Below, piece after piece: positions 1 to 10,570 of a DNA stretch of 10,570 nt. Within the stretch, counting starts at the first letter, position 1, and the number at the start of each line of letters is the position of its first letter. Under the pieces are notes generated by a model. It ran no database searches. It was given only the letters and a program-made list of their open reading frames with translations, and was not told where the DNA came from. Source of the stretch: a virus; the IMG/VR virus record IMGVR_UViG_3300031625_000826. The stretch is one strand, 5' to 3'. The position numbers and the translations under genes were made by a program.

Positions 1-791
1 TCTTCTTTATTGTCTTCATCGGTGCGAGGAGAAATCCCCAAGTCTTCAAAAACTTCATCCATTGGGATCAATTCGACAAGCCCCAAATCAAGTTCTTCGA
101 CTTGTTCTTTGAGTTCTTCTACAAACTCGTCTCTTTGATCTGGAGGACCATGAAAGCTAATGTCAAAATAAATGGAATCAATAATATCCAACAAACTAAA
201 GTCACATTCGCTTGTTAAGAGCTTGTAGTTCTTCAGTTTAGGGTGTTTTTTAAGCCGATAAACCTCAACCTTAGCATTAAGCACCAACTTGAGATGAGCA
301 AATTGGTTAAGAGGGGAAGCAGACACAGAATATTTTTCTATGCGGCCCACAGCTTGCTCAAATCCACTTTCAGCACTAGCAGCGGCTTGATCTTCTGCTG
401 TCAACGGTAAGCTAACACCGTGAAATTCTGGTGTCATTCCAAAGTTGGTGTAATTGCTGGTTTTGAGATAGTCAACAGCCCAACAGACTTCCAAATGATC
501 CATTTTGTCGTTTTCATCAATGATAGCTGGTTTATCTAACTCATTGTGAAAATCGTCTATGTTGCTGCACCATGTGTATTGGGAAATGAGGAACGTGAGG
601 ACTTCACTTTTGCGAACAAAGTCCATGATGTGCCAGAGGGTAGTATCTGGGTCAATTTCGCAATAAGTTCGAAGGTGAGAAAGAACTGTTGGGTCAGTCG
701 CTTCCATTAGTTCTTCTTCTTGTTCTTCGGTATCCGGGTTCCACTGTGCCACCATAAGTCCATCAGGTGTTAGTGTAACTTTCTCAGCCAT
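1..791 (-). CDS. Hypothetical protein, 5' portion only; the gene continues past the left edge of the window. N-terminus MAEKVTLTPDGLMVAQWNPDTEEQEEEL..., open for 263 codons to position 1.
   Basis: The minus-strand frame is open from the ATG at 789-791 down to position 1. An AAGGAA Shine-Dalgarno-like sequence lies 8 nt upstream (TAAGGAACAAAACTG-ATG). It is absent from the ORF track only because no stop codon falls inside the window. The acidic, Glu/Asp-rich sequence matches no family I recognise. Confidence 0.65.
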   Translation of the reverse strand, partial: MAEKVTLTPDGLMVAQWNPDTEEQEEELMEATDPTVLSHLRTYCEIDPDTTLWHIMDFVRKSEVLTFLISQYTWCSNIDDFHNELDKPAIIDENDKMDHLEVCWAVDYLKTSNYTNFGMTPEFHGVSLPLTAEDQAAASAESGFEQAVGRIEKYSVSASPLNQFAHLKLVLNAKVEVYRLKKHPKLKNYKLLTSECDFSLLDIIDSIYFDISFHGPPDQRDEFVEELKEQVEELDLGLVELIPMDEVFEDLGISPRTDEDNKE

Positions 792-810
792 CAGTTTTGT
801 TCCTTAAAAG

Positions 811-1058
811 ACACCATATAACTCCCGTAAGCAAAGTTTTGTTCTATGTCTACATTTATCTCTCCACTTTGGAGGGCCGTGTATTATCACTAGCCTGCAC
901 CAACCCGACCATTATAGTGTCGCTACACACACTAAGTCTGTTTGGCTTGCACGCATCGTGGTTCAAACGAGCAATTTGCTCTCCCACAAGGAGCGAATGT
1001 GCCTTGACTTTCCTCTAACTTCAAATGAAGCCAGCGTAGACTCGGAGTTATATGGTGT
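811..1058. repeat. Perfect 15-bp inverted repeat (811-825 ACACCATATAACTCC and 1044-1058 GGAGTTATATGGTGT) enclosing a 218-bp non-coding spacer.
   Basis: The arms are exact reverse complements, read directly from the sequence. The spacer has no ORF of 60 aa or more on the coding (minus) strand. Read on the minus strand it contains a TATAAT hexamer (916-911) and a 6-1-6 palindrome GAGCAA-T-TTGCTC (969-981). Confidence 0.6.
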
Positions 1059-1138
1059 TTCAATTCCTAAAAACGCATGGGCGACAATACCATTTCGTTC
1101 TGAAGTTGACCGTTTTCGAAGGCGTTGAGCTGTATTCT

Positions 1139-1273
1139 TCAAAGAATCTGGACGAAGCCATTCTTCTCTTCATCGTATTTTTCTCTTTTATCTCTGGAAA
1201 AGAGAGTCCACTTGGTTGTCCCCCAGATAGCTCCGATAACGAAGTATCCAACGGCTCCGATGGCGACCCACAT
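1139..1273 (-). CDS. Putative small single-pass membrane protein (44 aa if started at ATG 1273; 73 aa if started at TTG 1360, which would overlap ARH by 29 nt).
   Basis: The sequence has a hydrophobic stretch, VVAWLWHNPMWVAIGAVGYFVIGAIWGTT, followed by a charged tail, KWTLFSRDKREKYDEEKNGFVQIL. No convincing RBS precedes either start. Alternative ORFs overlap on both strands, so coding status is uncertain. Confidence 0.3.
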   Translation of the reverse strand: MWVAIGAVGYFVIGAIWGTTKWTLFSRDKREKYDEEKNGFVQIL

Positions 1274-1331
1274 TGGATTATGCCACAGCCAAGCGACAAC
1301 ATTGAAGATGGCGTATTTGTGTGAAAAAGAA

Positions 1332-2339
1332 TCACACAAATTGTTCAACGAAACGTTCAATTAGTTCATGGAGTTCTTCTTTCTTTTGAACTCCATCGAT
1401 TAGTTCTGTCGGGAAAATACTTTTCCCATGCAAAGCCCCAATCATTGAAGCAAACATTGAACCATTTGTGTCCGTATCGCCGCCTGCGTTGACTACATTA
1501 TACAGGCCCTCGATTGTTTGATCTTTCAAAAAATGAGCATATGTGAAAGGTAGGCTGTGGTAAACATAACATCCACTTGCCGACTCAAACAGGCGATCTT
1601 TTTTATCGGATTCAAATCCGAAAAGAAGATTAAATCTCTCCCGTAGAGAATCTTCTTTTTTGGTTAATGGTGGGTCAAGCTTAGCATGTTCAACGAATCC
1701 TTCAACGTAAGCGTGGTCGACAATTTCGTCTATGAAGGCATTTTCATCAAATTCTTCTGGCTGAAAAGCCAAACAGTGTTGAATAGCTTGAGTATGAGCT
1801 ATTGCTGCGTAAGCCGACATATCTGTGTAATGACTCATCGCAGAAAATTGAACTATTTTTTTGTAAGATGGATCACTTGTATTTGGAATACCGACCATAA
1901 AGTCCCAAATCGCAATCGGAGCGATTTTCATTGGGACGCCATTTCCAGTTCCTCGATTAGGATTATCAGTAATCCCTGATTCAGACCAATGAGCACCATC
2001 TTTTAATTTGCGAATGGACTCTTGAGTAGAATAACCCCAACCTTCTACGGACTCTGCCATTGCCAGCGTGTGATACTTAGCGATGGCATCCATGTCAAAA
2101 TCATTTGCTTCAAGCAAGGCTTTAACAACAGCAAAGGAAAGATGTGTGTCATCAGTCCAAAAACCTAAAGGCTGATCGTTAAACCACTTATGCCCAAGAG
2201 GTTGTTTGTATTCGGTGACTCTGGTGTGGATGTCTGCAATCTTTTCAGCAGAGTATCCTTCGACAGGTGCCCCAAGAGCATCGCCTACCACGATTCCCCA
2301 CAAGCAGCCACGTATTTTGTCTTCAATTGGTATTTGCAT
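1332..2339 (-). CDS. ADP-ribosylglycohydrolase family protein (ARH/DraG-like), 335 aa.
   Basis: N-terminal GCLWGIVVGDALGAPVEG and C-terminal GGDTDTNGSMFASMIGALHG are the two signature metal-binding motifs of the ADP-ribosylglycohydrolase fold. The ORF ends in an ATGA-type junction region. Confidence 0.85.
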   Translation of the reverse strand: MQIPIEDKIRGCLWGIVVGDALGAPVEGYSAEKIADIHTRVTEYKQPLGHKWFNDQPLGFWTDDTHLSFAVVKALLEANDFDMDAIAKYHTLAMAESVEGWGYSTQESIRKLKDGAHWSESGITDNPNRGTGNGVPMKIAPIAIWDFMVGIPNTSDPSYKKIVQFSAMSHYTDMSAYAAIAHTQAIQHCLAFQPEEFDENAFIDEIVDHAYVEGFVEHAKLDPPLTKKEDSLRERFNLLFGFESDKKDRLFESASGCYVYHSLPFTYAHFLKDQTIEGLYNVVNAGGDTDTNGSMFASMIGALHGKSIFPTELIDGVQKKEELHELIERFVEQFV

Positions 2340-2345
2340 GCTGCT

Positions 2346-2373
2346 ATTTTACGAAAAAAAAGCTTAAAGTAAA
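2346..2373 (-). promoter_or_regulatory. Sigma70-like promoter, copy B: -35 TTTACT (2373-2368), 16-nt spacer, -10 TAAAAT (2351-2346). The predicted TSS falls at or on the ARH ATG (2339), implying a leaderless transcript.
   Basis: This is the third copy of the motif TTTAC(T/A)-N16-TA(C/A)AAT. The 3' end of its spacer is TTTTTTTTCG, against AAAATTTTCG in copies A and C. Only 6 nt (AGCAGC) separate the -10 from the ATG, and the ARH start has no SD. The -35 lies immediately after the HNH stop codon. Confidence 0.45.
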
Positions 2374-9710: not shown

Positions 9711-9877
9711 GACTAGCTTTCTTTATGTGTTTAACGCAAGCAGGCAGCCCTCTTGCAAGAAGACTGCCCGTTATTTGTTCTTCGGGTGACCACGCCACTG
9801 TCACTTCTCTCAGCATAGAAAGCCGAGTGTTCTATTGCGGCTTAAACTACCGCTTCCCAAATGCTCACGTATCAAAG

Positions 9878-9981
9878 TACCCCTAGCAAGACTCGAACTT
9901 GCACGCCCGAAGGCACTGGTTCCTAATTATGAGGTTGCTTAACCTCTAGACCAGCGTGTCTACCAATTCCACCATAAGGGC
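9878..9981 (-). tRNA. Class-II tRNA-Leu-like gene (104 nt) with a 22-nt insertion in the anticodon loop (candidate intron). Removing the insertion restores the loop CUUAGGA, anticodon UAG. No CCA is encoded.
   Basis: Acceptor stem GCCCTTA/TAGGGGT. D-arm GTG-GAATTGGTAGA-CAC, a Leu-type D-loop. Anticodon stem CTGGT/ACCAG, enclosing 29 nt rather than 7. Variable arm T-GCC-TTCG-GGC-GT. T-arm GCAAG-TTCGAGT-CTTGC. Discriminator A73. Inside the insertion, GAGGTT pairs with AACCTC. The gene starts 5 nt after the stop of the upstream CDS. Confidence 0.55.
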
Positions 9982-9986
9982 ATAAA

Positions 9987-10364
9987 CTATTTTCCAATCG
10001 ACTCTATACTTGTCACGAAGTATGTAGTCTTACCTTTCCAACTTTGAACCCCTCTTTGCTGGCGATAATGAACTTTCACTCGCAAACCAGAATCCATCGC
10101 ATCTTCAACCTGTTTCAAGATGCCAGTACCGTCTTGAGATTCGTTAACGCTAAACGCCCACGTCTCAACTGTTGCACCTTGCTGAAGCTCACCTTCATGA
10201 GTGTCCCATTCCCCAAATCCGCCCTTTTCGGAGAATTTGATGACAATGCCAGCACGACTTCCTGTCGAATAAGTCCATCCATCAGCAGTGAACCAAAGGT
10301 ACATTCCGCCGCTGAATAGTCCCACAGCAACAACAATCATAGCAATGTGCTTGGCTTTCATCAA
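9987..10364 (-). CDS. Small exported or membrane-anchored protein with an N-terminal signal peptide, 125 aa.
   Basis: MMKAKHIAMIVVAVGLFSGGMYLWFTADGW has the form of a positively charged n-region followed by a hydrophobic core. A purine-rich GGAAAGAAAG RBS precedes the start, and promoter copy C lies 44 nt upstream. Confidence 0.7.
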   Translation of the reverse strand: MMKAKHIAMIVVAVGLFSGGMYLWFTADGWTYSTGSRAGIVIKFSEKGGFGEWDTHEGELQQGATVETWAFSVNESQDGTGILKQVEDAMDSGLRVKVHYRQQRGVQSWKGKTTYFVTSIESIGK

Positions 10365-10407
10365 TCTTTCTTTCCGTTAAGTGACCTAGAATTTTTATGT
10401 TTGTCCT

Positions 10408-10435
10408 ATTGTACGAAAATTTTGGTGAATGTAAA
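10408..10435 (-). promoter_or_regulatory. Sigma70-like promoter, copy C: -35 TTTACA (10435-10430), 16-nt spacer, -10 TACAAT (10413-10408).
   Basis: It has the same architecture as copies A and B. It lies immediately downstream of a terminator-like hairpin plus U-run, and the ATG of the first gene of the block lies 44 nt 3' of the -10 hexamer. Confidence 0.5.
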
Positions 10436-10474
10436 CCAAAAAGGAAGGCGAAACAGGTCATTATCCCGTTTCAC
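10436..10474 (-). terminator. Putative intrinsic terminator.
   Basis: The transcript hairpin GUGAAACGGG-AUAAUGA-CCUGUUUCGC is an imperfect 10-bp stem with a 7-nt loop, followed by CUUCCUUUUUGG. A second inverted repeat, GCGGCAG...CTGCCGC (10491-10532), follows on the transcript by UUUUGGGUG and lies just upstream. Confidence 0.4.
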
Positions 10475-10570
10475 CCAAAAGCGGCAGTTAAATTTTACTT
10501 CAAGCAACATCAGGGGTTCCGCCTCCTGCCGCTTACTCATTTCTCGACTTTTATACGAGTGAGCTAATTA

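Follow-up and report, generated by a model that had tools for sequence, protein, structure and literature searches.

Introduction

RNase P RNAs without a specificity domain have been described as engineered constructs reduced to the catalytic domain (C-domain-only; PMC5839562) and as the archaeal type T of Pyrobaculum, which has archaeal protein partners (PMC13462272). We analyzed a stretch of viral DNA of 10,570 nt (IMGVR_UViG_3300031625_000826; "the window" below is this whole stretch) and found in it an RNase P-like RNA gene that also lacks this domain but is natural, virus-encoded and of the bacterial type, together with a gene whose product is homologous to major vault protein (MVP) and a tRNA-Leu gene whose anticodon loop is interrupted by a 22-nt insert.

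Bacterial MVP homologs are known (Daly et al. 2013, PMC3762200), and a 2023 preprint described phage MVPs in two human-gut Caudoviricetes, clustering with the bacterial ones (Santos et al., bioRxiv 10.1101/2023.11.10.566534); we found no demonstration in the literature of a vault-like particle for a phage or bacterial MVP. Known tRNA introns include the archaeal and eukaryal ones of the bulge-helix-bulge type and the group I intron of bacterial tRNA-Leu(UAA). Huge phages were described by Al-Shayeb et al. 2020 (LR756511, of 595 kb, and LR756500/501/503, of 462-735 kb); these phages and the jumbo contigs of IMG/VR carry tRNA genes, metabolic genes and selfish endonucleases, as does the lineage of the window.

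The window corresponds, as reverse complement, to 3650-14219 of L001, a 15.6-kb Logan contig, and it was compared with four related contigs, L004, L005, L058 (169,795 bp; ENA ERZ26661968 NODE_17) and L060 (65,429 bp; Tara ERR594346 k127_743273). An earlier sequence-only reading had described the window as a virus or mobile island that combines eukaryote- or archaea-type cargo with bacterial or phage gene signals; its account of the gene content overlooked the RNase P-like RNA at 823-1049 (minus strand).

An RNase P-like RNA with the catalytic domain only

The RNA gene is the following.

823..1049, minus strand: mini RNase P RNA, about 227 nt (Rfam, our own covariance model and covariation)

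The Rfam model RNaseP_bact_b matched 823-1049 (minus strand) with 49.8 bits (E 2.5e-11), short of its gathering score of 97, and in the alignment 155 model positions, those of the specificity domain, were replaced by 17 nt. A covariance model built from three copies of the RNA with a hand-drawn structure recovered the window copy at 815-1052 with 100.7 bits (E 5e-28) and also copies in L049, L063, L070 and L047. Syntenic copies were found in L004 (10944-11212) and, in the same intergenic gap, in L058 (9721-9994) and L060 (9717-9978); other copies lie in L049 (1246-1488, minus strand), L063 (7177-7414) and L070 (8144-8385).

Comparison of the copies showed that 97% of the cells of the covariation alignment hold standard pairs, against 32-42% in controls with slid partners, and that 43 of the 76 pairs have changes on both sides. 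The P4 helix, which is outside the model, was 100% paired in eight sequences, with covariation at six of its eight pairs and its bulged U kept, and the 4-bp P6 pseudoknot was 100% paired, with a switch from U-A to C-G. The RNA has the conserved motifs CR-I (GAGGAAAGUC), CR-IV (AGAUAAAUG) and CR-V (ACAAAACUUUGCUUA), which we take to be equivalent to their counterparts in the M1 RNA of Escherichia coli. It also has elements P1-P5 and P15-P18, the P4 and P6 pseudoknots, a J5/15 of the form GCAAxCCAAAxAG, and GGU in the position of L15, the loop that in bacteria binds the CCA end of tRNA. The specificity domain (P7-P14, with CR-II and CR-III) is missing, and a hairpin of 5 bp plus 4 bp stands at its site.

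The retention of CR-I, CR-IV, CR-V, J5/15 and GGU, together with the covariation, identifies the RNA at the level of sequence as a bacterial type A-like catalytic domain without the specificity domain. With bacterial type A (RF00010) it shares CR-I, CR-IV, CR-V, P1-P5, P15-P18, the P4 with its bulged U, the P6 pseudoknot, J5/15 and GGU; unlike RF00010 and the engineered constructs, it belongs to a set of natural, virus-encoded RNAs of only about 190-300 nt, with some relatives of apparently about 140 nt. It would most likely cleave the 5' leaders from phage pre-tRNAs, perhaps with the host RnpA. An alternative role would be that of a decoy for RnpA.

Distribution of the mini RNase P RNA

A pattern search for CR-IV and CR-V matched at least 120 IMG/VR contigs. 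Among the matches listed, the distance from CR-I to CR-IV was bimodal, with 73 matches at 80-210 nt (154 nt in the window) and about 20 at 225-326 nt, the latter being the spacing of cellular RNase P RNA. The covariance model found at least 72 copies in 100 IMG/VR loci, aligned over the full span of the model and 174-333 nt in length (median 233), and the mini RNase P family is larger than these 72. Such RNAs were seen across loci L083-L198, on contigs of 4-500 kb, for example in L114 (9461-9713), L161 (6804-7032) and L083 (12075-12270). The scanned loci held 461 tRNA genes in 624 kb. Many of the mini RNAs directly abut a tRNA gene: among the matches listed, 54 have such a gene in their locus, and 23 of these are at most 9 nt away from one.

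At the Rfam gathering scores none of 13 mini copies was called, and two full-size copies on IMG/VR contigs were. These class A copies are at 4462-4786 of L134, a 100,724-bp IMG/VR contig, inside a dense tRNA array, and at 3703-4082 of L182; given the position of the first within a tRNA array, it seems that certain phages encode RNase P RNA in complete form. At the other extreme is a candidate version of about 140 nt (L045, about 9715-9880; L048, about 8970-9140; L051, about 12430-12600; L057, about 4225-4395), with CR-I, CR-IV, CR-V, tiny P3 and P5 hairpins, and a tRNA gene directly after it.

No description of a phage-encoded RNase P RNA was found in the full-text literature that was searched, an absence that is not proof of novelty; the only related remark concerns extra RNase P RNA copies in Mycobacterium austroafricanum. 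Both the mini RNase P RNA and the tRNA-Leu insert look new.

Inserts in the anticodon loop of tRNA-Leu genes

The interrupted tRNA gene of the window is the following.

9878..9981, minus strand: tRNA-Leu(UAG) gene, interrupted at 9926-9947 by a 22-nt insert (AGAGGTTAAGCAACCTCATAAT, a 6-bp hairpin); Rfam tRNA, 42 bits; ARAGORN intron mode

With default settings ARAGORN missed this gene, and in intron mode it called Leu(tag) with a 22-nt intron. Alignment to an insert-free ortholog, together with ARAGORN, placed the insert between positions 33 and 34, with a boundary ambiguous by 1-2 nt. The ortholog, in L004, is without exactly these 22 nt and differs from the window gene by compensatory changes in the anticodon and T stems; the interrupted gene is therefore still evolving as a tRNA. 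Removal of 9926-9947 would join ...GGUCU to UAGGAACC and give the loop CUUAGGA. In a set of 120 metagenomic tRNA-Leu genes that share this 5' half, no other loop is as frequent; all 120 have normal loops, free of inserts. A pattern scan of IMG/VR for more insert-bearing tRNAs matched only a tRNA-Glu D-arm, and most of the intron-mode calls of ARAGORN in other loci had poor stems. A second interrupted gene was seen outside the window, a tRNA-Leu(UAA) at 1001-1107 of L001 (plus strand) with a similar 22-nt hairpin insert (AGGGTTAGACAACCCGATCGTT) at the same place of the anticodon loop.

The insert of the window had been read as a tRNA intron that is possibly protein-spliced. The insert is real and, as with known tRNA introns, the exons are intact, would form a canonical loop if joined, and flank an insert whose start can pair with the anticodon. 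Yet in the minimum-free-energy fold, in which the anticodon pairs with the first bases of the insert, the unpaired AUAAU and GA are both on the 3' side, and no alternative pairing puts the strand of the 3' exon in the central helix. This rules out a bulge-helix-bulge intron, and therefore nothing ties the insert to the archaeal or eukaryal splicing enzyme. Its location at 33/34 (±2 nt) also differs from the canonical protein-spliced position 37/38, and no gene for a splicing endonuclease or RNA ligase was seen nearby. A group I intron was ruled out as well: 22 nt compares with a ribozyme core of about 200 nt or more (P3-P9), which makes the insert some ten times too short for a group I ribozyme, and the window has no Rfam intron match. 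For the tRNA-Leu(UAG) to decode, the hairpin insert would have to be removed.

A major vault protein of bacterial type

The vault gene is the largest of the window.

5372..8017, minus strand: MVP homolog, most likely 881 aa from M46 (MVP_shoulder and Vault_3); the 926-aa open reading frame (ORF) runs to 8152

The true start is most likely M46, because a copy of the promoter described below lies inside the N-terminus of the 926-aa ORF. An 881-aa database protein (P0001) is identical (100%) from this start, and the alignments of homologs begin there. The N-terminal 45 codons of the longer ORF (8018-8152, minus strand), which hold the promoter and overlap the upstream gene, are probably untranslated.

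Membership in the MVP family was indicated by PF11978 (5.4e-24; 84.9 bits against a cut-off of 25) and PF17795 (6.8e-10). MVP chains of the PDB were matched with E 3e-16, and vertebrate MVP only from repeat 8 through the cap helix, with E about 1e-16. An AlphaFold2 model of low confidence (pLDDT 56) had beta repeats at residues 60-180, a shoulder at 590-715 and a single helix at 717-864. When this low-confidence model was submitted to Foldseek, the top 12 matches were all vault structures (E 2e-17 to 2e-13, about 950 aligned columns), and the R1-R7 vault crystal structures matched it with E 1e-5. The protein thus has the full-length architecture of published phage and bacterial MVPs, with beta repeats at the N-terminus, then an SPFH-like shoulder and finally a long helix that forms the cap.

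More than 4,100 homologs were found in the protein collection, mostly bacterial or metagenomic. The best ones outside its own clade are about 47% identical, those with a name being from Myxococcota. Homologs are also present on 38 IMG/VR contigs, mostly of 100-470 kb (36-45% identity), and on the three curated huge phages LR756500/501/503 (39% identity). These matches assign the protein to a bacterial clade of MVP that is widespread in jumbo phages; it groups, as the published phage MVPs do, with bacterial and not with eukaryotic MVPs. Unlike those of the human gut, the MVP of the window is marine, dozens of contigs of 100-470 kb carry such a gene, and it stands in a conserved block with its own promoter and terminator. 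A bacterial-clade MVP of this kind would presumably form a vault-like shell.

Nature of the replicon

Contigs from five other metagenomes were 99.96-99.97% identical to the window, which therefore represents a real, widespread population and not an assembly chimera. Samples with this population include JGI 3300010883 and 3300027847. Its genes belong to a block conserved in L004, L005, L058 and L060 with 55-88% protein identity. The order kept in these relatives is exonuclease, (PyrE), MVP, methyltransferase, small genes, OCD, HNH and ARH, followed by (263-aa gene), the RNA, a 276-aa gene, CoaD, PyrF, a deoxyribosyltransferase-like gene, UvrD and a DEAD helicase; PyrE is within the block in the relatives only. 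Just outside the window are CoaD, PyrF, intein-bearing helicases and a family-A DNA polymerase, and the lineage has this polymerase, two helicases and an exonuclease of its own. The longest contig gives a genome size of at least 169,795 bp. Within the next 10 kb along it are the family-A DNA polymerase, PurM-like and PyrB-like genes, a radical-SAM enzyme, and a UDP-glucose dehydrogenase gene split by a GIY-YIG endonuclease.

The relatives of the lineage-specific proteins are almost only on IMG/VR contigs of 146-533 kb and in huge phages such as LR756511. The DEAD/ResIII helicase is 49% identical to that of LR756511 (595 kb), with the next phage matches at 27-30%. LR756511 also encodes homologs of the DEDDh exonuclease (40%, 2 kb from the helicase) and of the 102-aa protein (35%), both at most 15 kb from its helicase homolog. 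The most restricted of these families is that of the orphan gene at the end of the window.

1..791, minus strand: 276-aa orphan gene, first 263 codons (start codon 789-791); follows immediately downstream of the RNase P-like RNA in its closest relatives

This family has 13 members among 5.8 billion proteins, and its distant relatives are on IMG/VR contigs of 33-533 kb. The window most likely comes from the genome of a large (jumbo/huge) double-stranded DNA phage, marine and uncultivated, that has a bacterium as host, "jumbo" meaning a genome of over 200 kb; its identity as a phage is strongly inferred, not proven. The proposal of a virus or phage-like mobile replicon with cargo thus gained from the conserved block, the polymerase and helicases of its own, and the huge-phage relatives. 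With the phages of Al-Shayeb et al. 2020 the lineage has helicase, exonuclease, 102-aa protein and MVP homologs in common; unlike them, it is marine and has a longest contig of 170 kb. The two show no similarity at the nucleotide level, and around MVP, the only gene common to that region, synteny is absent.

Several observations weigh against a phage. Genes for capsid, portal, terminase and tail were not seen in about 36 kb of lineage sequence; of the hallmark genes whose search had been advised, the polymerase was found (family A), and capsid and terminase were not. A weak Pfam match to ParB_N at the contig end and a LexA/CI-like S24 peptidase on the contig would fit a plasmid or other extrachromosomal element. 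The lineage itself was absent from IMG/VR and INPHARED, where the best MVP identity was at most 45% and megablast of the window DNA, against INPHARED among them, returned nothing. One distant 276-aa homolog is on a 5.9-Mb Acidobacteriota contig. Finally, it is from sequence that we infer the activity of the RNase P RNA, that of the MVP and the removal of the inserts.

An unlikely alternative is an origin from the chromosome of a marine bacterium not yet cultivated, as an ordinary region, a genomic island or a prophage; the cargo would then be cellular or integrated. MVP, OCD, ARH, CoaD and PyrF are common in bacteria, the closest named MVPs are those of Myxococcota, and the S24 peptidase and the Acidobacteriota homolog just cited would fit such a source. 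However, the 185,579 species genomes held no close relative of the lineage-specific 276-aa protein, only two distant homologs with 30-32% identity, which also argues against an ordinary bacterial chromosome with genes conserved in the genus. These two are in metagenome-assembled genomes, at 10001-10630 of L062 (Acidobacteriota, the 5.9-Mb contig) and on L061 (Pirellulales, a 10-kb contig), and the covariance model detected no RNase P-like RNA up to 10 kb from them. Nor do about 36 kb of the lineage hold a cellular core gene. The lineage does have a DNA polymerase A of its own, as well as inteins, homing endonucleases and small orphan ORFs in dense arrangement, and a lineage-specific promoter is repeated ahead of unrelated genes. 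A GC content of 43%, with only 47% identity to the MVPs of high-GC Myxococcota, speaks against a recent chromosomal origin.

We consider quite unlikely a large plasmid or non-viral extrachromosomal element (megaplasmid, Borg-like) of a marine bacterium. The ParB_N match and the S24 repressor-like gene would suit it, as would the cargo rich in metabolic genes and the lack of a virion structural gene in the about 36 kb, but ParB genes are common in large phages too. PLSDB gave no match to the window DNA (megablast) or to the MVP, and the nearest relatives of the helicase, the exonuclease, the MVP, the 276-aa protein and the RNA are on viral contigs and in curated huge phages.

A giant eukaryotic virus (Nucleocytoviricota) with bacterial-looking signals is very unlikely. 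In its favour, MVP is best known from eukaryotes, and short tRNA introns occur in some chlorella viruses. Against it, the MVP falls in the bacterial clade (47% identity there, against the partial vertebrate match at E 1e-16), the tRNA insert is not of the bulge-helix-bulge type, the promoter is of the sigma70 type and comes with start/stop overlaps of 4 nt and enriched Shine-Dalgarno motifs, the RNase P RNA, with its P6 pseudoknot and GGU in the L15 position, is bacterial type A-like, the ARH, methyltransferase, exonuclease and HNH proteins match PHROGs and the relatives are huge phages, the polymerase is of family A and not B, and no Nucleocytoviricota core gene was seen.

Selfish elements were seen inside genes of the lineage (inteins, GIY-YIG/NUMOD3), with some strains carrying them and others not. 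UvrD has an intein (L060 13124-16525), and the DEAD helicase a LAGLIDADG intein (L074 12856-15333; 825 aa against 478 aa without it). At 1375-2865 of L199, a GIY-YIG/NUMOD3 endonuclease is fused to the UDP-glucose dehydrogenase.

Other genes of the window

The minus strand carries every credible gene, 12 protein genes and one 73-aa ORF remnant, so that the count of 13 genes on one strand given earlier was essentially right. Besides the MVP and 276-aa genes, they are the following.

1139..1360, minus strand: 73-aa ORF, decayed remnant of a 263-aa gene (tblastn; intact gene in L004, L058 and L060)
1332..2339, minus strand: ADP-ribosylglycohydrolase (ARH/DraG-like), 335 aa (PF03747, 1.7e-48; phrog_6572, 3.5e-30; weak DraG match)
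2375..2833, minus strand: free-standing HNH protein, 152 aa, with a lysine-rich tail (PF01844, 5.3e-5); overlaps the OCD stop by 1 nt
2833..3825, minus strand: NAD(P)-dependent enzyme of the OCD/mu-crystallin family, 330 aa (PF02423, 1.5e-68)
3822..4130, minus strand: 102-aa protein (gene call; 35% homolog in LR756511)
4120..4446, minus strand: 108-aa acidic protein (gene call; orthologs 81-83% identical in L004 and L005)
4446..5288, minus strand: FkbM-family methyltransferase, 280 aa (PF05050, 3.6e-21; TIGR01444, 89.9 bits, above cut-off; phrog_8156)
8115..8516, minus strand: 133-aa protein (gene call; orthologs 35-47% identical)
8506..9081, minus strand: DEDDh (RNase T/DnaQ-like) 3'-5' exonuclease, 191 aa (PF00929, RNase_T, 6e-10; phrog_192, 1.3e-20)
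9126..9710, minus strand: 194-aa protein (gene call; orthologs 59-63% identical)
9987..10361, minus strand: 124-aa protein with an N-terminal hydrophobic segment (gene call; L005 ortholog 57% identical)

The decay of the 73-aa ORF was seen by tblastn with the 263-aa proteins of L004 and L058, which matched with 65-67% identity over 52 aa at 1160-1315 and then continued in a different frame. In other assemblies of this strain, the ORF called at the site is one of 89-90 aa on the opposite strand.

OCD and ARH are ordinary bacterial or phage families. Both match bacterial NCBIfam models, and ARH also a phage PHROG; the best NCBIfam models for the OCD enzyme were alanine dehydrogenase (220 bits) and the OCD family (183 bits), with all scores below the cut-offs. 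The MVP, OCD and ARH proteins had been taken as eukaryote- or archaea-type, an origin that their sequence matches contradict. Human vaults bind ADP-ribose, which prompted the idea of a theme of NAD+/ADP-ribose metabolism (MVP, ARH, a nucleotidyltransferase). It was dropped: the transferase is CoaD and not an NMN adenylyltransferase, and the phosphoribosyltransferase is PyrE.

The HNH motif reported earlier is present (PF01844, 23.7 bits against a cut-off of 21.4; ten HNH phrogs match), but the mobility implied by "homing endonuclease" is not borne out. The gene lies between OCD and ARH in every relative (L004, L058, L060 and L074-L079), its L004 ortholog is 82% identical, and it is translationally coupled to OCD; it is therefore a resident gene, not a fresh homing insertion. 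The PADLOC models of defence systems gave a generic match to the DEDDh protein only and no system.

Outside the window, a tandem array of three to five paralogous genes was seen at 1148-2817 of L001 (plus strand) and 1802-3538 of L005; the Cys-rich N-terminal motif that these paralogs share (GRAICVEPDDDGWICEPCW) is probably a zinc-binding module. L005 also has a weak tmRNA-like Rfam match at 625-755 (plus strand; 18.3 bits, E 0.0016).

Expression signals

Five signals were assigned positions in the window.

2342..2373, minus strand: promoter copy 3 nt ahead of the ARH start codon, TTTACT-N16-TAAAAT within TTTTCGTAAAAT
5316..5349, minus strand: strong intrinsic terminator, with a 15-bp stem, 8 G-C pairs and a T tail, directly after the MVP stop codon
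8065..8096, minus strand: promoter copy ahead of the MVP gene, with orthologs in L004 (3555), L005 (7719) and L060 (1203)
10404..10435, minus strand: promoter copy, TTTACA-N16-TACAAT, 10/12 matches
10446..10476, minus strand: terminator-like hairpin, with a 12-bp stem, just upstream of the promoter at 10404..10435

The sequence-only reading had listed sigma70-like promoters, intrinsic terminators, Shine-Dalgarno sequences and translational coupling, and comparison with shuffled sequence separated these claims. Generic sigma70-like sites were at chance (16 against 17.0 ± 4.2 in shuffled sequence), as were terminator-like sites (10 against 9.2 ± 3.2); what stood was a specific conserved promoter and the terminator with the 15-bp stem after MVP. 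The promoter motif is TTTAC(A/T)-N16/17-TA(A/C)AAT, embedded in TTTTCGTAMAAT, and its full form is (g)aTTTTAC(a/t)TT-N9-TTTTCGTA(A/C)AAT, with a -35 of TTTACA, a -10 of TAMAAT and a spacing of 16-17 nt. The coding strand of the contig has five copies where 0.75 would be expected, and none of 200 shuffles reached five. Three copies are in the window, ahead of the 124-aa, MVP and ARH genes, and further copies are at 729 and 14284 of L001; the promoter is retained at orthologous positions in the four relatives (L004, L005, L058 and L060). In three of the five copies the promoter ends 3-10 nt from the start codon, which suggests leaders that are very short or absent.

Start/stop overlaps of the ATGA and TAATG/TGATG types are common, as the claim of translational coupling had it. 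Shine-Dalgarno-like motifs precede 33-57% of genes, against 13-15% of random positions, and are thus only moderately enriched. Transcription would probably be by the host sigma70 RNA polymerase from the repeated promoter of the lineage, ending at intrinsic terminators, and translation would use the overlapping start and stop codons and weak Shine-Dalgarno sites.

Discussion

In the reading that we prefer, that of a large phage, the window would be a co-oriented block of non-structural genes within the phage genome. Its cargo would be of bacterial or phage type and not eukaryotic (MVP, ARH, OCD, the FkbM methyltransferase, the DEDDh exonuclease and the resident HNH protein), and its two RNA genes would be the putative catalytic-domain-only RNase P RNA and the tRNA-Leu(UAG) with its 22-nt hairpin insert. 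Large phages that collect bacterial metabolic genes, and phage vault proteins, are already known, which makes the observation as first described mostly ordinary. What sets the window apart is above all the RNase P RNA without a specificity domain, with its large viral family, and after it the tRNA-Leu inserts. The presence of MVP on dozens of very large phage contigs may nevertheless offer a tractable route to the function of vaults, which has long been unknown.

We put forward, tentatively and as a joint proposal that may quite possibly hold, that large phages commonly encode a functional RNase P made of the catalytic domain only (about 140-300 nt, an undescribed natural class usually in or next to tRNA arrays), which would mature the phage tRNAs alone or with the host RnpA, and that the 22-nt inserts of the two tRNA-Leu genes may be a new mini-intron of bacterial viruses, with a removal that follows neither the bulge-helix-bulge route nor that of group I introns. 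The insert-bearing genes would then point to an unfamiliar route of RNA processing in a bacterial virus.

If this proposal is true, one of the few universal ribozymes would have in this RNA its first viral member, and the RNA would be a natural test of the minimum RNA needed for tRNA 5' processing. With at least 72 members, the mini RNase P family is large enough for immediate comparative and biochemical work, and its RNAs would give phages a new means to control or safeguard the tRNA supply during infection.

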